Assembly (NCBI GenBank): GCA_044222185.1
Contig: JBGANV010000004.1
Span: 160,001-224,000 of the forward strand
Direction: 5' to 3'
DNA length: 64,000 nucleotides
From: Planctomycetota bacterium
GTDB lineage: Bacteria; Planctomycetota; GCA-002687715; CAIWVZ01
Below the pieces are notes generated by a model. The model ran no database searches, had not been told where the DNA came from, and was given only the letters and a program-made list of their open reading frames with translations. Positions 28,686-36,632 of this stretch are shown here, piece after piece; position 1 is the stretch's first letter, and each line of letters opens with the position of its first letter. The translations under genes were made by a program, and so were the position numbers.

Positions 28686-29440
28686 ACAGCGCGCTCTATT
28701 TCGGGTCGGTGCGGCATCGGCGGCAGGTCCCCGTCGTGCACGAGTTTTCCTACCGCCTGTTCATGGTGTGGCTCGACCTCGACGAGATCGACCGTGCCTT
28801 TGCCGGCCGCTGGCTGTGGTCTTCGCGGCACGCCGCCCCAGCATGGTTCCGGCGACGCGATTACCTGGGCGATCCCAGCGAGCCCCTCGCGGATTCGGTG
28901 CGCCGCGCGGCGGCCGCGAAGATCGGCGTCGCCCCGCAGGGCCCGATCCGCATGCTGACGCACCTGCGCTACTGGGGGTACGTCCAGAACCCGGTGACGT
29001 TCTACTACTGCTTCGATCCCTCGGGCGACACGCTCCAGTGCGTCGTCGCCGAGATCACGAACACGCCGTGGGGCGAGCGGCACGTCTACGTCACGCCGCG
29101 CGCACCCGGCGGCGGCGTCGCCGGAACTTTCGACAAGGAGTTCCACATCTCGCCGTTCATGGACATGGGGCAGCGGTACTCCTGGGTGTTCGGTGCGCCG
29201 GCCGAGCGCTTGCACGTCGCCATGCGAAACGAGTCCCACGGCGTGACGACGTTCGATGCCACGCTCGACCTCGAGCGGGCGCCGCTCGACGGAATCCACT
29301 GTGCGAAGGCACTGGCGCTGCACCCGTGGATGACGTTGAAGGTCTTCTTGGGGATCTACTGGAATGCGCTTCGACTCCGACTGAAGGGGTGCCCGTTCCA
29401 TCCTCATCCCAAGCGATTGGTGAAGGGCGGCACGGCGTGA
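28682..29440 (+). CDS. DUF1365 family protein (UfaO-like)
   Basis: SALYFGSVRHRR...FSY, GYVQNPVTFYYC, AEITNTPWGERHVY, KEFHISPFM, IYWNALRL. Start 28682 by ATGA overlap. Confidence 0.92.
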   Translation: MNSALYFGSVRHRRQVPVVHEFSYRLFMVWLDLDEIDRAFAGRWLWSSRHAAPAWFRRRDYLGDPSEPLADSVRRAAAAKIGVAPQGPIRMLTHLRYWGYVQNPVTFYYCFDPSGDTLQCVVAEITNTPWGERHVYVTPRAPGGGVAGTFDKEFHISPFMDMGQRYSWVFGAPAERLHVAMRNESHGVTTFDATLDLERAPLDGIHCAKALALHPWMTLKVFLGIYWNALRLRLKGCPFHPHPKRLVKGGTA

Positions 29441-30732
29441 CCGCGGCGAGTCGCACCCGCGTCGCTGCAACGCCGGCGGCAGTCCCGTCTCTCGTGGACG
29501 GCGTGGCACGCCGGCTCGTGTGCGCCCGGTTCTCGGCGCTGCGCCGAGGGGCCGTCACCGTGATCGACGACCGTGGCGCGTCGCGATTCGGTGCACCCGA
29601 ATCGGGAGAGGTTCCCAGCGGGACCCTGCGCGTCGTCGACCCCCGCGTCTGGCGTCGAGCCGCGCTCGGCGGAGCCATCGGGCTGGCCGAAAGCTACGCG
29701 GACGGCGATTGGACCAGCGACGACCTCGTCGCGTTCATGCGCGTCTTCGCTCGTGAGGCGGCCGTTTCCGACGGCGTCGAGCGCCTCGGCGCACGCCTGG
29801 CGAAGCCCCTGCGACGTCTGCGCCACGCCATCCGTCGGGATACGCGCGCGGGCTCCCGCCGGAACATCCACGAGCACTACGATCTCGGCAACGAGTTCTT
29901 CCGACTGTGGCTCGATCCGACCATGACCTACTCGTGCGCGGTCTTCCCGCGCCCCGATGCGTCGCTCGAGGACGCCCAGATCGAGAAGATCGATCGCATC
30001 TGCCGCAAGCTCGCCCTGAAGCCGGGGGAGAGCCTGCTGGAGATCGGCACGGGATGGGGAGCCCTCGCACTCCACGCCGCACGCCAGTACGGCGTGAACG
30101 TGACGACCACGACCATCAGCGACGAGCAGTACCGGCACGCGACGGATCTGGTGGCGCGCCAGGGTCTCGGCGATCGCATTCGCGTGCTCTCGTGCGACTA
30201 TCGCGACCTCGCGGGGACGTTCGACAAGCTCGTCTCCGTCGAGATGATCGAAGCGGTGGGCGCCGCGTATTTCGACGCGTACTTCGCCGCCTGCTCGCGG
30301 CTCTTGGCACCGCATGGTCGGATGCTCATCCAGTCGATCACCATCGCCGAGAATCGCTACGACCACGCCCTCCATTCCGTCGACTTCATCCAGAAGCACA
30401 TCTTCCCTGGAAGTTGCATCCCGTCGCTCGCGGCGATCATGCGATCCGTGGCGAAGGCGACGGACCTGGGACTGGCCCACCTCGAGGACATCACGGCGCA
30501 CTACGTCCGCACGCTCTCGGAATGGCGGCGGCGGTTCCTCGCCGCGCGGGCGCGCGTCACGGACCTGGGATTCTCCGAGCGGTTCGTCCGCATCTGGGAC
30601 TGGTACCTCGCCTACTGCGAAGCCGGGTTCGCCGAGCGTCGCATCGGTGACGTCCAGCTCCTGTTCGTGAAGCCCGGTTTCCGGGAGGATCCGATCGGCA
30701 TCGGCGCGGCAGCCGAGGGCGTGACGCCTTGA
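29437..30732 (+). CDS. cfa: Cyclopropane-fatty-acyl-phospholipid synthase family methyltransferase (Cfa/UfaM-like)
   Basis: NIHEHYDLGNEFF, MTYSCA, LEIGTGWG, VSVEMIEAVG, FIQKHIFPG, YLAYCEAGF. GTGA overlap. Confidence 0.92.
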   Translation: MTAASRTRVAATPAAVPSLVDGVARRLVCARFSALRRGAVTVIDDRGASRFGAPESGEVPSGTLRVVDPRVWRRAALGGAIGLAESYADGDWTSDDLVAFMRVFAREAAVSDGVERLGARLAKPLRRLRHAIRRDTRAGSRRNIHEHYDLGNEFFRLWLDPTMTYSCAVFPRPDASLEDAQIEKIDRICRKLALKPGESLLEIGTGWGALALHAARQYGVNVTTTTISDEQYRHATDLVARQGLGDRIRVLSCDYRDLAGTFDKLVSVEMIEAVGAAYFDAYFAACSRLLAPHGRMLIQSITIAENRYDHALHSVDFIQKHIFPGSCIPSLAAIMRSVAKATDLGLAHLEDITAHYVRTLSEWRRRFLAARARVTDLGFSERFVRIWDWYLAYCEAGFAERRIGDVQLLFVKPGFREDPIGIGAAAEGVTP

Positions 30733-31514
30733 GCGTCTTCTCCACGCTCGGCTGCGTCTGGCTCGCGGCTTCGGTCTACATGACGCTTGCCTGGGTCGTC
30801 GCGCGGCGCATCGGCAAGGCCGGGATCGTGGATGCCTTCTGGGCGTTCGGGGTCGGCGCTGCAGGAGCTGTTGCGGGACTCGCCGGCGATGGGCTCCTCG
30901 CCCGTCGGGTCGCCGTCGCCGTGGTCGTCGCCGTGTGGGCTTGCCGGCTCGGGGCGATGCTCTTTCGGCGCGTCCTCCAGTCGGCGGAGGATGGGCGGTA
31001 CGCCGCCATGATGAACGCGTTCGGCGCCAAGGCGTGGCCGCGGATGTTCGTGTTCTTCCAGGTCCAGGCGTTCTGGATCGCGCTGTTCGCGGCGCCGGCA
31101 GCGGCAGCGGGGCGCGACACGAGCCCGCTCCGGGTCCTCGACGCCGTCGCGATCCTGATCGGGCTCGGTGCCATCGCGGGAGAGGCGATCGCCGATCGAC
31201 AGCTCGCGGAGTTCCGGGCCCAGCCGGCCCATCGCGGCAAGACGTGCCGCTCGGGACTGTGGGCCTGGTCACGTCATCCCAACTACTTCTTCGAGTGGCT
31301 GCACTGGTTTGCCTATCCCGTTTTCGGGTTCGCCGCGCCGCAGGCGTGGCTCTGCCTCGCGGGGCCGTTCGTCATGTTCGTCTTCCTCTACCGGGTGACG
31401 GGCATTCCGTGGACGGAGAAGCAGGCGCTGCGCTCGCGTGGCGACGACTATCGGCGGTATCAGGCGGAGACGAGCGCATTCATCCCGCTGCCGCCGAGGC
31501 GGAGGATGGTGTGA
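30729..31514 (+). CDS. DUF1295 family membrane protein (steroid 5-alpha-reductase-like)
   Basis: IVDAFW, EDGRY, EAIADRQL, GLWAWSRHPNYFFEW, TGIPWTE, YQAETSAFIP. Confidence 0.92.
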   Translation: MSVFSTLGCVWLAASVYMTLAWVVARRIGKAGIVDAFWAFGVGAAGAVAGLAGDGLLARRVAVAVVVAVWACRLGAMLFRRVLQSAEDGRYAAMMNAFGAKAWPRMFVFFQVQAFWIALFAAPAAAAGRDTSPLRVLDAVAILIGLGAIAGEAIADRQLAEFRAQPAHRGKTCRSGLWAWSRHPNYFFEWLHWFAYPVFGFAAPQAWLCLAGPFVMFVFLYRVTGIPWTEKQALRSRGDDYRRYQAETSAFIPLPPRRRMV

Positions 31515-32560
31515 TCGGCGAATTCGTCACGCGCGCGCTGATCTCCCAAGCCGAGGCGGGGCGGCTCCCCGACGCCTGGATCCGGGCCGGCATCCGCCGA
31601 CTGCTCCGGAAGCGACTCGAGCAAGAGTGCGTGGGGAACCCCGCCGCCGTGGCGACGCGGACGGCTGCGTTCGAGCACGCGCTGCGCAGCGCGACCGTCG
31701 CCGTGGAGACCGCTGCCGCCAACGTGCAGCACTACGAGGCGCCAACCGAGTTCTATCGGATCTCGCTTGGTCCGCGGATGAAGTACAGCGGCTGCCTGTG
31801 GTCCGACGGCGTCGTCGACCTCGCTGGCGCGGAGCTCGCCTCCCTCGAACAGGTCGCGGCGAGGGCGCGATTGGTCGATGGCCAGGACGTGCTCGAGCTG
31901 GGCTGCGGATGGGGTTCGTTCACCCTGTGGGCCGCGGAGACGTTCCCGAACTCGCGCTTCACGGGCGTGTCCAACTCGCGGACGCAGCGGGAGTGGATCG
32001 AGTCGGAAGCGATCCGCCGCGGACTGGCCAACGTCACGGTCCAGACGTGCGACATGAACGTGTTCGACCCGGGACGGACGTTCGACCGCATCGTGTCCAT
32101 CGAGATGTTCGAGCACATGCGGAACTACGAGGTGCTGTTGTCGCGCATCGCTCGCTGGATGCGATCGCAGGCGACGCTCTTCATCCACGTGTTCTGTCAC
32201 CGCACGGCCGCCTATCCGTTCGAGGTCGGCGGCGCCGCCGATTGGATGGCGCGCGAGTTCTTCACGGGCGGGCTGATGCCCAGCGCGGATTTCATCCCGC
32301 GGTTTCGGGGCGAGCTCATCCACGAGGCGACGCATCTCGTCGGCGGTGAGCACTACCAGAAGACGGCCGAGGCGTGGCTTGCCAACACGGATGCCCGTGC
32401 GGACGCGGCGCTCGCGGCGTTGTCGGATGGCGTGAAGCCTTCGGAGGCGGCGCTGCGACTGCAGCGACGGCGGATCTTCTACATGGCCTGCGCCGAGCTC
32501 TTCGGCTTCGCCGGGGGCCGGGAGTGGCTCGTCGCGCACCACGTGTTTCGCAAGGCGTGA
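31511..32560 (+). CDS. Class I SAM-dependent methyltransferase (CFA/coclaurine-N-methyltransferase-like)
   Basis: ANVQHYE, LGPRMKYS, LELGCGWGS, SIEMFEHMRNY, FFTGGLMPS, ACAELFG. GTGA overlap. Confidence 0.92.
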   Translation: MIGEFVTRALISQAEAGRLPDAWIRAGIRRLLRKRLEQECVGNPAAVATRTAAFEHALRSATVAVETAAANVQHYEAPTEFYRISLGPRMKYSGCLWSDGVVDLAGAELASLEQVAARARLVDGQDVLELGCGWGSFTLWAAETFPNSRFTGVSNSRTQREWIESEAIRRGLANVTVQTCDMNVFDPGRTFDRIVSIEMFEHMRNYEVLLSRIARWMRSQATLFIHVFCHRTAAYPFEVGGAADWMAREFFTGGLMPSADFIPRFRGELIHEATHLVGGEHYQKTAEAWLANTDARADAALAALSDGVKPSEAALRLQRRRIFYMACAELFGFAGGREWLVAHHVFRKA

Positions 32561-32579
32561 CGGGAGCGCAGCGGCGTGG

Positions 32580-33830
32580 TCACCATTCGATGCCGAGGCC
32601 GCGCGCGACGTCGACGGCCGAGCGCAGGCCGTCCTCGTGGAAGCCGAACCCCAGATGGGCACCGGCGAACCAGGTGCGACGGCGTCCGTTCAGCGCGCGC
32701 AGCGCTGCGCGGGCTGCTGCGGCGGCGGGAGTGCCCAACGGGTGTTCGAACGTCGTGCGATGGGCCACGTCGGCGTCTCCCAAGGGAGCCTCGGCGTTCA
32801 GCGTGACCGACCACGGCGTGCGCGTCGGCAGCGACTGGAGGCGGGTCATGGCGTAGGTGATCGGGACGCCGACCTCGGGCGCGCGGCAGTCGCGGACGCG
32901 GTAGTTCCACGAGGCCGCGGCTGCGGCGGATCGGGGAAGGAACGTGGGGTCGCGGTGGAGCACCAGCGGGTTCGTCGCGTACTCGAACGCGGCGAGAGCC
33001 GTCCGCTCCTCGGGCGCGGCGTCCTGCAGGAGCCGCAGGGTCATGTCCGCGTGCACGGCGAACACGACGGCATCGAACCGGAGGTGCTCGCCGGCGGCGG
33101 TCACGGTCACGCCGTCGTCGTCACGCCGGACGGCGGCCACGGGCGTCGCCGTGCGCACGCGCGGCCCCAGGATCCCGAGGAGTTTGCGGACGTAGGTTCG
33201 GCTCCCACCCGTGACGGTGCGCCACCGCGGTCGTCCGCCGAACGCGAGCAGCCCGTGGTTGTCGTAGAAGCGGAACAACTCGCCGATGGGAAACTCGCCG
33301 GTGCGACGGGCCGACGTCGACCAGATGGCGGCGGTCATCGGCGCGAGGAAGTGTCGTTCGAAGTCGTCACTCAGGGCCGCCCGGCGCCGCCACACGTCCA
33401 GCGGCATGGCCGCCATCGCCGGATCGTTCAGGGCCGCTCGCGCGCGCCGGAAGAAGCGGCGGAACCCCATCACGGTGCGCCAGAACGCAGGCTTCAGGAC
33501 GTTCGACGGTTTCGCGAGCAGCGCCCGGAGCGACGTCGTCGCGAACTCGATCTTGCAGCGCTCGCAAGCGACGCTGAACGACATGTCGGACGCTCGTGTC
33601 GGGACGTCGAGCTCGGCGAACAGCCGTGTGAGCAGCGGATAGGTGCGTTCGTTGTAGACGATGAACCCTACGTCGATGGGGATCGTGGTCTCGCCGTCGA
33701 CGACGTCGATCGTGCGTGCGTGACCGCCGGCCAGCGGCTCGCGCTCGAACACCGTGACGTCGTGACTGCGACGAAGGATGTAGGCCGCGCCGAGTCCCGA
33801 GATGCCGGCGCCGATCACCGCGATACGCAT
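32580..33830 (-). CDS. FAD-dependent oxidoreductase, amine-oxidase family (UfaD-like)
   Basis: GAGISGL dinucleotide motif, GGHART, DVGFIVYNERTYP, SDMSFSV, ASWNY, GFHEDGLRSA. Confidence 0.92.
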   Translation of the reverse strand: MRIAVIGAGISGLGAAYILRRSHDVTVFEREPLAGGHARTIDVVDGETTIPIDVGFIVYNERTYPLLTRLFAELDVPTRASDMSFSVACERCKIEFATTSLRALLAKPSNVLKPAFWRTVMGFRRFFRRARAALNDPAMAAMPLDVWRRRAALSDDFERHFLAPMTAAIWSTSARRTGEFPIGELFRFYDNHGLLAFGGRPRWRTVTGGSRTYVRKLLGILGPRVRTATPVAAVRRDDDGVTVTAAGEHLRFDAVVFAVHADMTLRLLQDAAPEERTALAAFEYATNPLVLHRDPTFLPRSAAAAASWNYRVRDCRAPEVGVPITYAMTRLQSLPTRTPWSVTLNAEAPLGDADVAHRTTFEHPLGTPAAAAARAALRALNGRRRTWFAGAHLGFGFHEDGLRSAVDVARGLGIEW

Positions 33831-33944
33831 GGCGCGAGCGTAGCAGCCCGTTGATCGAGTGTCGCCGTCACGCGCGGTGCGAAGGTCGGCGGTGACGCGC
33901 CGCAGGCTTCTCGTTCCGCCGGACGGGCGTTATGAAGCGCGACG

Positions 33945-34487
33945 ATGCTGCAACCCGGCGACTTCGCTCCCGACGTCTCGGTCCTCACGGTCGATGGAGC
34001 TTCCGCGACACTCGCTTCGTTCCGAACGGGCCCCGTCACGATCTTCGAGTTCGTGCGTCACCTGGGTTGAATCTTCTGCCGCGAACAGCTCGGTGAGCTG
34101 AAGTCCAGGAAGGCCGCGTTCGACGAGCGCGGTGCGACGATCGTCGTCGTCTCCCTCGCGAGCCCTTCGGCGACGAAGGCGTTCGCGACGACGCAGGAGC
34201 TGCCGTTCACCTGCGTCTCGTCTGCGGACGGTGCGGCGCATCGCGCGTTCGGCCTTCGCAAGGGCCGGTTGTGCGAGCTCCTCGGGTGGTCCGTGATTCG
34301 GGCCGGCATCCGCTCGTTCTTCGCCGGCCATCGCGCCGGCCTGCCCGCGGGCGACATGACGATTCTCCCGGGCACGTTCGCCGTCGACGGGGCCGGGCGA
34401 GTGGTCTTCGTGCACTACGGCCGCACCAGCGCTGACCATTTGCGCGCAGATGCGTCGCTCGCGCGGCTCGACGCCGTGCGGCGATAG
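33945..34487 (+). CDS. Peroxiredoxin-like AhpC/TSA_2 (SelL/SelU/PRXL2-like) selenoprotein with UxxC; in-frame TGA at 34068-34070
   Basis: Manual translation: MLQPGDFAPDVSVLTVDG...IFEFVRHLG*IFCREQLGEL...AHRAFGL...LPGTFAVDGAGRVVFVHYGRTSADH. The stop falls exactly at the first Cys of the family motif RHLGCxFC, and family-like sequence continues in frame for 138 codons. Confidence 0.85.
34071..34112 (+). promoter_or_regulatory. Candidate bacterial SECIS element
   Basis: CAGCTC-GGT-GAGCTG perfect 6-bp stem (34086-34100); loop starts with G, 21 nt after the UGA; possible lower stem TTCTG/CAGGA. Confidence 0.7.
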
Positions 34488-34646
34488 ACGCGCGGTATGT
34501 CTCGGTCCGGGCTCCGTTCGTCGCGCGGCGACTCGCGCACGGTGACGCGCGTTGACTCGACCACGGGGCCGCCGAGTACACTGTGGCCGCGCCCAGGCGA
34601 ACGCGCGGTTCGCACGTCCCCCGACCTTCGAAAGCAGGGTTCGACC

Positions 34647-35150
34647 ATGGTCACCAATCGATCGAGTGGTTTCATTCTCGTCGCGTTGCTCGTCACGTCC
34701 GTGGCGGCGGCGCAGTTTCCCATCGGGGCCGTCGGGTTCAGTTGGAGCGGCACGACGACTCCCAGCGCCGGGAACTTCTGTTGGGGTTTCAGCTGCGCGC
34801 CCGATTCCGTCACGGTGGCCGTCGGCGAGACCGTCACGATTCGCGTGCGTGGCGATTACCAGCAGCCTTACGCGATAGGTTTCTCCACTTCGGCCACACG
34901 CTGCATCACGATCCCCGGCGTGCTCCACAACCTCATTCTCGATGATCCGATCACGGTCGTGTGGACCGGCTTCCTCGTCGTGGGCAGTCCGATCCTCGCG
35001 TGCCCGTCGGGGACGGACGCGGTGACCGTCGTCATCCCGCCGTTCTTCCCGTCCGGGACGACGTTCGCGCTTCAGGCCGTGGCCGGCACGCTCGGGCCGG
35101 CCGGAAGTCAGCTTTCGTTCACGTCCGCACTTGCCGTGACCGTCAGCTGA
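34647..35150 (+). CDS. Small secreted protein consisting mostly of the recurrent C-terminal beta domain
   Basis: Signal peptide (..VTSVAAA-QF); ends VIPPFFPSGTTFALQAVA...SFTSALAVTVS. Confidence 0.7.
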   Translation: MVTNRSSGFILVALLVTSVAAAQFPIGAVGFSWSGTTTPSAGNFCWGFSCAPDSVTVAVGETVTIRVRGDYQQPYAIGFSTSATRCITIPGVLHNLILDDPITVVWTGFLVVGSPILACPSGTDAVTVVIPPFFPSGTTFALQAVAGTLGPAGSQLSFTSALAVTVS

Positions 35151-35168
35151 GGCGTGCTTCGCGGGCGT

Positions 35169-36632
35169 TCACGGGGTGCGACCCGTGAGCGCCATCGCCT
35201 CGGTGTCGATCCACGTGTTCCAGGCTGCCTGCAATTCGTCCAGGCCCATGCCGAAGGCCTCTCGCGACACGGCGTCGATGGCTGCCGGCAGGTTCGCGCG
35301 TGCCGTGCCTGCCTTCGCCAGGAACCGCGTGAAGCTCGGCGCGAAACGCGGGTCCTCACGCAGGAACGTGATGATCAGCGCGCTCTGCATGCGTGCGTCG
35401 AGATGATCTGGGCCCGTCGTCTTGCGCCATGGGTGGCGGTCGTCGTCGAGTGCCCACTGACTCAGATCGTCGAATCCGATCCCGTTCATGACGCTCGCGA
35501 ACGAAGCGCGGCGGCCGCGCGCGGCGACCTCGGCGCACGTGTGCAGGTGCGCGCGCGACAGCTGGACGTAGTCCGCGACACCCTCCTGCAGCCACTTGCC
35601 GCCGCCGGGGATGAACAGCCGGTTCTCGAAGATCTCGTGCGTCGCTTCGTGAACGAGGATCGGATCCTCCGGACCGCGATACCACGTCACGAACGTGTCG
35701 CCGCCCTGGTGCCCGAGCCGAACGTCGGACGGCCGGCACCGGTCGTACTCCGCCTCGCTCTTGAAGAGGATCAGCGGCATGAGCCGCCGCTCGCGCGCTT
35801 CGGTGAACGGAAACGCCTCGCGCACCTTCTCGTGATTGCGCTCGAGGCGGCGCAGCAGCGAAGCGCCGGCGTCGATCGTCGAGAGGACGATGTAGTGTTG
35901 GGTACGCGTGATCTGCTTCAGCACGGGTAGCTCGTCACCCTCGTAGGCGAAGGACTTCACGTACGAATCGAAGCGCGCCTTGGCCTCGGCGTCCGTCCAG
36001 CGCTCGTCCCGCAGGGCCCCGACGTGGTGAATCCCGTGCTGGAACAGGTCCAGGACGCGCGCTTCGACGTCCGGCGAAGCAGCCGGCGCGCTGAGGACCT
36101 GAAGGATCCAACCGCGCGACGCCGCGATTCCGGCAAGCACGTAGAGCCGGCCCTGGTCGGCGCCGGTCGCGAGCTTCGTGAGTCGGCCCTGCGCATACCC
36201 GGCGAGTGGTGTTCCGCCGTAGTCGCCTCGCCAGGTCTCGATGTCACCGATGCGTGCGACGAGTCCGCGATGCGTGAACGCATCGCGCAACTCCTCCGCG
36301 CAGGGTTCGCTCGACTGATGCGAGCAGAATGCGACCGCCGGCGTTCGGACGCTCGTCTTCAGCAGCCACAACAGCGACTCCGGTTCGGAGATCAGGAAGT
36401 CGTTCACGGGAACGATCTGGAGGAGAAACTCCACTTCCGAACCGAGAAGCTCGCCGCGCCACGAACGCGACTTGATGCGCCCGCCGCCGTCCGAGGTGAC
36501 GGCGTTGGTGAGAGGCGGGAGCGCCAGTGTGAGCGAGTGACCGGTCTCGACAGGCACGGTCTCCACGCCCTGCGCTGCGACGAGCGGGAGGATGAGAAGG
36601 ACGGCCGCAAGCACCTTGTTGGTCGGGAACAT
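35169..36632 (-). CDS. Secreted gluzincin metallopeptidase (DUF1570/peptidase MA-like)
   Basis: Signal peptide; ILVHEATHEIF followed by WLQEGVADY. Confidence 0.75.
   Translation of the reverse strand: MFPTNKVLAAVLLILPLVAAQGVETVPVETGHSLTLALPPLTNAVTSDGGGRIKSRSWRGELLGSEVEFLLQIVPVNDFLISEPESLLWLLKTSVRTPAVAFCSHQSSEPCAEELRDAFTHRGLVARIGDIETWRGDYGGTPLAGYAQGRLTKLATGADQGRLYVLAGIAASRGWILQVLSAPAASPDVEARVLDLFQHGIHHVGALRDERWTDAEAKARFDSYVKSFAYEGDELPVLKQITRTQHYIVLSTIDAGASLLRRLERNHEKVREAFPFTEARERRLMPLILFKSEAEYDRCRPSDVRLGHQGGDTFVTWYRGPEDPILVHEATHEIFENRLFIPGGGKWLQEGVADYVQLSRAHLHTCAEVAARGRRASFASVMNGIGFDDLSQWALDDDRHPWRKTTGPDHLDARMQSALIITFLREDPRFAPSFTRFLAKAGTARANLPAAIDAVSREAFGMGLDELQAAWNTWIDTEAMALTGRTP

Follow-up and report, generated by a model that had tools for sequence, protein, structure and literature searches.

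A gene very likely to encode a peroxiredoxin-fold UxxC selenoprotein, cut at an in-frame TGA in a Planctomycetota genome

Introduction

The active site of canonical peroxiredoxins is marked by the signature PxxxTxxC, and eukaryotic SelL carries a UxxU diselenide motif with two selenocysteine (Sec) residues. As a signal for Sec insertion, the bSECISearch model describes a stem-loop 3' of the UGA, with its loop 16-37 nt from that codon and a G starting a small apical loop.

Peroxiredoxin-like (Prx-like) selenoproteins with a UxxC motif have been in print since 2004-2008, and Table 1 of PMC13188914 includes them among its high-confidence predicted families. Table 2 of PMC2398784, which reports the GOS survey, gives 225 Sec and 2,740 Cys sequences for Prx-like 1; the same paper calls SelL 'a Prx-like protein' and records it in prokaryotes and eukaryotes. 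Both papers divide the Prx-like selenoproteins into several subfamilies, and we do not place the protein described here in any one of them. The NCBIfam model NF040769 is named after SelL; neither 'SelL-related' nor 'NF040769' was found as a term in the literature searched, which comprised papers without their supplements. A related system is human prostamide/PGF synthase (PGFS; PRXL2B/FAM213B), in which, according to PMC12938796, the C44xxC47 motif reduces the endoperoxide of PGH2 with Cys44 facing the peroxide, and the strictly conserved Arg40 and Arg41 form a positive pocket for the endoperoxide substrate.

Here we analyse a gene in a 64,000-nt stretch of DNA (hereafter the window), which corresponds to C14:160001-224000 of a 7.08-Mb metagenome-type assembly (16 contigs, 93.8% complete). 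A first-pass annotation had read it as a hidden 180-aa UxxC selenoprotein with a Prx-like/AhpC-TSA_2 fold, a SECIS-like hairpin and Sec machinery in the same genome, and this core reading is supported by the results below. We consider it very probable that the gene is a genuine selenoprotein gene, and that its product is a 180-aa thioredoxin-fold oxidoreductase of the AhpC-TSA_2/SelL-related branch of the peroxiredoxin superfamily.

Results

Gene structure and use of TGA

Re-reading the sequence confirmed all coordinates of the 180-aa frame, which runs for 41 codons to a TGA, continues for 138 codons and ends in TAG (Table 1). The start codon is the ATG at 33945-47; since an in-frame TGA at 33933-35, four codons 5' of it, closes the frame upstream, this is the only possible start. 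The junction across the internal TGA reads FVRHLG-U-IFCRE, and the gene contains neither a frameshift nor a second stop. GC content at the three codon positions is 0.68/0.49/0.76 upstream of the TGA and 0.67/0.56/0.88 downstream, showing the same phase on both sides. As the first-pass annotation had also remarked, the table-11 ORF list shows the gene merely as a 72-aa piece (34269-34487).

Table 1. Features of the selenoprotein locus (window coordinates)
Feature	Position	Strand	Remarks
FAD amine-oxidase-like gene	32580-33830	-	divergent from the selenoprotein gene
Divergent intergenic region	33831..33944	.	114 bp, between the FAD amine-oxidase-like gene and the selenoprotein gene
Coding sequence, predicted 180-aa selenoprotein	33945..34487	+	41 codons, UGA (predicted Sec42), 138 codons, TAG stop
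In-frame TGA, predicted selenocysteine U42	34068..34070	+	codon 42, first residue of the UxxC redox motif
TGC codon, Cys45	34077..34079	+	second residue of UxxC; matches the peroxidatic Cys of peroxiredoxins in position
SECIS-like hairpin CAGCTC-GGT-GAGCTG	34086..34100	+	6-bp stem (34086-91 with 34095-100), loop GGU (34092-94)
TAG stop codon of the selenoprotein gene	34485..34487	+	

Elsewhere in the window TGA behaves as a stop. All seven neighbouring genes checked end in TGA and none carries one in frame, and the stop-to-stop frames of at least 350 codons in the window end in 52 TGA, 14 TAG and 3 TAA. A genetic code with TGA as a sense codon was therefore rejected, as the neighbours end in TGA and TGA is the commonest stop of long frames. 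The selenoprotein gene itself ends in TAG, unlike the seven neighbours checked.

The Sec machinery is encoded in the same assembly, as the first-pass annotation had implied it should be: selA, selB, selC and selD were all found. The tRNA-Sec gene scores 74.7 bits, above the Rfam cut-off, and is called tRNA-SeC(tca) by ARAGORN; selA lies immediately upstream of it, and a SelB wing-3 domain is found within a 664-aa frame. The selD gene has an in-frame TGA of its own and reads GGG-U-ACK, which corresponds to the UxxK Sec motif that Table 1 of PMC13188914 gives for this selenophosphate synthetase. This selD (G000:C14:427704-428624; L011:1402-2640) is on the same contig, outside the window, and a second TGA is its true stop. 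A weak thioredoxin-fold match in the same genome (G000:C8:167072-167302, E 3e-4) has one in-frame TGA in a 426-aa frame and may be another selenoprotein.

Selenocysteine and cysteine alternate among homologs

The read-through protein served as query, first against 61 relatives, of which 29 had a match (E <= 0.001), and next against 401 genomes of the phylum, of which 71 did (E <= 1e-8). By table count, 43 of the 76 listed matches of the phylum sample contain one in-frame TGA and 33 contain none. The phylum loci were pooled with 32 loci from named genomes to give 73 loci (L013-L085); these 32 had been found by a Cys-containing back-translated pattern, so that they are all Cys by construction and serve as a control set, giving no estimate of frequency. 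After removal of two loci in which the redox motif was absent or not covered (L032, L061) and three above the E-value cut (L030, L031, L064), the remaining 68 were aligned.

The first position of the U/CxxC motif is exactly where the TGA falls in 24 of the 68, and TGC or TGT fills it in the remaining 44; the residue-42 column thus holds only Cys or Sec, and the in-frame UGA is aligned with Cys in homologs in the manner of a bacterial selenoprotein. Each of the 24 TGA forms contains exactly one in-frame TGA in a frame that is otherwise open over the aligned region. An alignment of this kind had been proposed as a check on the original reading, and what it reveals is alternation of Sec and Cys at the TGA column, not decay. 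One TGA form, L080 (G173:C1:1724501-1724932), has U-x-x-T in place of U-x-x-C (GULFTRE) and is without the partner Cys.

A quick maximum-likelihood tree of 50 sequences was built from the alignment minus its redox column. At least 8 switches between Sec and Cys are required on it, and well-supported branches force at least 3 of them. The window protein stands on a long branch without a supported sister. No homolog was found at E <= 1e-8 in the four genomes of its own family; one of these, G003, gave weak matches near 1e-4.

A SECIS-like hairpin is enriched in TGA forms

The hairpin 3' of the TGA (Table 1) has its first loop G at 34092, 21 nt past the A of the TGA, which bears out the position given for it in the first-pass annotation. 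As a stem-loop shortly 3' of the UGA with a G at the start of a small loop, it has the arrangement of the bSECISearch model. It is present in the minimum free energy fold, at -6.7 kcal/mol. The stability of the hairpin by itself is not above chance, as judged by 200 shuffles: the 58-nt fold has z = +0.84 and 163 of the 200 were at least as stable. Control windows in the same gene range from 0 to -10.7 kcal/mol against the -6.7 of the hairpin. Its weight therefore comes from the comparison with homologs and not from its own energy.

For that comparison we searched for contiguous stems of at least 5 bp with loops of 3-10 nt starting 16-40 nt past the codon, and scored a hairpin when it reached -6 kcal/mol or better and had a G in the first two loop bases. 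By these thresholds, which were chosen after the folds had been inspected, a hairpin is present in 19 of 24 TGA forms and absent from the other five, versus 4 of 44 Cys forms and none of the 14 Cys forms that belong to the same phylum (the 30 other Cys controls, picked by the Cys-containing pattern, represent other phyla, some of lower GC). The median hairpin energy of TGA forms, -9.4 kcal/mol, compares with -1.6 in Cys forms and with -5.1 in control windows further inside the TGA genes. Mann-Whitney tests gave p = 2.7e-6 and 8.6e-5, values which overstate the case because the sequences are related. The stems vary in sequence among lineages while the loops are GGU, GUU or AGUU, and where Cys forms encode the same peptides (LGE, AQLR) they do so with codons that do not pair. 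A permissive Rfam scan of 33000-35500 (E up to 10) returned no SECIS, only three chance-level sRNA matches.

The protein has a predicted peroxiredoxin fold with a thioredoxin-type redox centre

The 180-aa product scores 66.3 bits against Pfam AhpC-TSA (PF00578; gathering threshold 26), 49.3 bits against AhpC-TSA_2 (PF13911; gathering threshold 27) and 43.8 bits, above cut-off, against Redoxin. Its only NCBIfam match at E <= 1e-10 is NF040769, the SelL-related redox protein model (E 1.2e-32). This match covers profile positions 3-167 of 173 and reaches 112.9 bits, 7 bits short of the curated cut-off of 120. Because of this shortfall, we class the protein as a close, divergent relative of NF040769; under NCBI's rule it is no member. 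The cut-off is reached by 20 of 38 homolog fragments, of which 12 have TGA and 8 have Cys. The family and the window protein have in common the motif F-x-R-H-x-G-[U/C]-x-F-C-R-E, and the latter thus has the R-H-x-G-[U/C]-x-F-C-R core along with near full-length coverage of the profile. Among 50 sequences three columns are invariant (R38, H39 and U/C42) and seven nearly so (at least 90%: F36, G41, F44, C45, R46, D93 and G143); the window protein keeps all of these residues.

The closest database proteins (53-66% identity) are fragmentary, with lengths of 107-134 aa. In the two best, the first residue falls about nine positions past the Sec, on contigs too short for the TGA to be checked; gene callers that stopped at a TGA would be expected to produce such starts. 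A search of the PDB by sequence returned remote Prx and ResA-like matches alone (best E 2.2e-6).

An AlphaFold2 model computed with the homolog alignment has a pLDDT of 95.3 and a pTM of 0.91. In it, residue 42 comes directly before helix 43-54, and a helical segment spans 109-126. Foldseek and VIA-align assign the model to the peroxiredoxin fold, a thioredoxin-type fold, with many Prx chains at Z 18-21 over 147-156 residues. The best structural matches are canonical peroxiredoxins of the Bcp/PrxQ and AhpE types (3hjp, Z 21.1; 3drn, 20.1; 5epf, 20.1), with which the many Prx chains at Z 18-20 are effectively tied. The canonical PxxxTxxC signature is absent, however: in a HMMER alignment to Bcp4 (3hjp), Arg38, Sec42 and Cys45 take the Pro, Thr and Cys positions, so that Cys45 occupies the position of the peroxidatic Cys while Arg38 stands in for Pro and Sec42 for Thr. 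The label 'peroxiredoxin-like' in the first-pass annotation thus holds for the fold and does not hold for the active site. Since R38, U42 and C45 align in this way, the protein as modelled would combine a Prx fold with a thioredoxin-type UxxC centre.

The longest structural alignment of the model, 159 residues, is to human PGFS (9usa; Z 19.3, rmsd 2.5), with an AhpC-TSA_2-type fold in both. The spacing R40-R41-x-x-C44-x-x-C47 of PGFS is the same as R38-H39-x-x-U42-x-x-C45 here, with His39 replacing Arg41, and both proteins have a segment between core strands (residues 108-124 in PGFS, helices 109-126 here). The two differ in that PGFS is eukaryotic and has Cys instead of Sec; identity is 15-16%, and the PGFS substrate PGH2 is not expected in bacteria. 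Eukaryotic SelL, compared by description, differs in having UxxU: the gene described here has one in-frame TGA, and the second position of its motif is a TGC Cys codon. The resemblance to the 'Prx-like thiol:disulfide oxidoreductase' and 'Prx-like 1' families is likewise one of description (PMC13188914, PMC2398784) and consists of the Pfam domain (PF00578), a Sec-first UxxC and many Cys homologs.

The TGA is present in independently assembled contigs

Twenty public runs contain the stretch or part of it; they are labelled as sludge, wastewater and bioreactor metagenomes, with one soil metagenome at low share. For comparison we took contigs from the runs of four further studies, leaving aside the possible source sample. 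A 1,084-nt contig from X3 over 33700-34700 has 7 differences, none of them in the TGA codon, and a contig from X7 (34034-34447) has none at all. The 180-nt contig from X19, an RNA library (33976-34155), has one difference and the same TGA, which is no proof of transcription. Contigs from X6 do not cover codon 34068-70. By our own codon reading, the five in-gene variants comprise three synonymous (34028, 34286, 34448) and two non-synonymous (34029, 34407) changes. The first-pass annotation had called for reads to be checked for TGC or TGT at this codon; the contigs from X3, X7 and X19 all have TGA there, with the reservation that assembled contigs can drop rare variants.

Gene neighbourhood

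Upstream of the locus, on the plus strand, lie a gene for a CMAS-type methyltransferase, a DUF1295 gene and a second CMAS-type gene. Together with the FAD amine-oxidase-like gene, which is convergent with them, they make window 28768-33830 a fatty-acid-modification-type cluster. By gene type, the window's lipid genes loosely resemble the UfaM/UfaD/UfaO furan-fatty-acid genes of PMC7380195; no DUF1365 or UfaO-like domain was found among 12 ORFs scanned around 28768-33830. A consensus scan of 33700-34800 gave no sigma-70-like promoter and no intrinsic terminator. We do not claim co-transcription with the downstream ORF as an operon partner: this 217-aa ORF (34497-35150) has no Pfam match, and its plausible start, at a signal-peptide-like stretch, is about 150 nt further on. 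Beyond it, on the minus strand, a 487-aa ORF (35169-36632) has an N-terminal signal-peptide-like stretch, a HEATHE (HExxH-like) motif and no Pfam match; three plus-strand ORFs of the same region look spurious, and this minus-strand frame probably represents the real gene there.

CMAS, DUF1295 and amine-oxidase domains are absent from all 94 flanking ORFs of 38 phylum loci and from all 43 of 15 Cys-form loci, with flanks of 1.5-3 kb that give limited power and, at high GC, many greedy stop-to-stop ORFs that are probably spurious. No conserved neighbourhood was seen among the scanned homolog loci, where the flanks hold unrelated genes. Items that recur are MerR/B12-binding regulators (two loci) and SRPBCC proteins (two loci), and a sigma-70 gene is found in L015. 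The MerR plus B12-binding regulators, of the CarH-like, light-sensing type, adjoin one Cys form and one TGA form (L021:2253-3395 and L071:390-1613; 2 of 38 loci). An AIRS/AIRS_C-domain protein, of the fold class of SelD, ThiL and HypE, adjoins a TGA-form homolog (L022:2037-3044, minus strand). The Armatimonadota loci have the gene after dnaG-rpoD, and inositol monophosphatase also recurs. In L035, L038, L044, L048, L050 and L052, dnaG lies upstream of the Cys form, the match being at about 3001; in five of these six the Cys form comes directly after rpoD, and the sixth, L048 (record title Synechococcus), showed no rpoD. In L038, L044 and L052 an inositol monophosphatase gene stands on the other side of the Cys form.

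Discussion

Since Prx-like UxxC selenoproteins have already been published and NCBI curates the NF040769 model, the gene, judged by its sequence, adds a new and somewhat divergent member to a kind that is already known. In the mechanism that we propose, UGA codon 42 would be recoded to Sec by SelB and tRNA-Sec, guided by the hairpin 21 nt downstream. Sec42 would then sit at the N-terminus of the active-site helix and form a UxxC redox pair with Cys45. Its selenolate would attack an oxidised substrate, which may be a disulfide or else a peroxide or endoperoxide; a selenenylsulfide with Cys45 would follow, and a thioredoxin-type reductant would regenerate the enzyme. The invariant Arg38 and His39 lie where Arg40 and Arg41 of PGFS make their positive pocket for the endoperoxide.

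Could the TGA instead be a nonsense mutation of the catalytic Cys codon in a gene that is decaying? A change from TGC to TGA takes a single base, and the divergence of the protein (112.9 bits against a cut-off of 120), the lack of an ortholog at E <= 1e-8 in the four family-level relatives and the 107-134 aa length of the closest database proteins would all suit a pseudogene. Decay had indeed been named at the outset as an observation that would overturn the selenoprotein reading, and it was not seen: the TGA is at the same column in all 24 TGA-bearing homologs, which belong to many families and have otherwise open frames. The gene itself has no frameshift or second stop and keeps the invariant and nearly invariant residues, its GC3 phase continues unbroken across the TGA, the structural model is confident throughout, and the hairpin is at the expected place. 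The TGA is moreover stable in populations from at least three studies, and we hold a pseudogene to be highly improbable. An error of sequencing or assembly hiding a true TGC or TGT is a natural concern with a metagenome-type source of 16 contigs and 93.8% completeness. Contigs X3 and X7 from two other studies and the X19 RNA library agree at the codon even though X3 and X19 differ from the window at other sites, and the chance of such an error is, in our estimation, close to nil.

A subtler alternative accepts the codon and disputes its decoding, with UGA42 being read by a standard tRNA (Trp, Cys or Arg), or mostly terminating translation with a minor, selenium-free full-length product. The SECIS-like stem is short and weak (6 bp, -6.7 kcal/mol), and Sec insertion at this codon is a prediction from sequence, both of which count in favour of this idea. 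Against it, the genome has a complete Sec pathway, of which selD itself depends on Sec decoding; the position is redox-active and is filled by Cys or Sec alone in 68 homologs; and the hairpin is enriched specifically in TGA forms. We therefore attach very little probability to decoding by a standard tRNA, and Sec at position 42 is the reading that we prefer.

As to substrate, the first-pass annotation had suggested that the selenoenzyme reduces lipid peroxides for an adjacent 'furan-lipid' locus, and this found no support, the lipid-gene domains being absent from all 94 and 43 flanking ORFs scanned around homologs. Because no scanned homolog locus carries such domains, the link to lipid genes, itself a speculation, is a local coincidence or a lineage-specific association. 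In its strongest form, the lipid reading would make the enzyme a dedicated membrane-lipid (endo)peroxide reductase working with the divergent FAD amine-oxidase-like gene, the two CMAS-type genes and the DUF1295 gene, Sec42 acting as Cys44 of PGFS does on PGH2; this reading we judge very unlikely to hold. If true, it would name the physiological substrate of a bacterial SelL/PRXL2-type protein for the first time.

The gene leaves knowledge of selenoprotein kinds and mechanisms as it was. With Sec in 43 of the 76 listed phylum matches and repeated changes of state, the family offers a handy natural series in which Sec and Cys versions can be compared. For the organism, the TGA is where standard gene callers cut the gene, and the correct reading would return an active-site-bearing redox enzyme to the annotation and add one entry to the selenoproteome.
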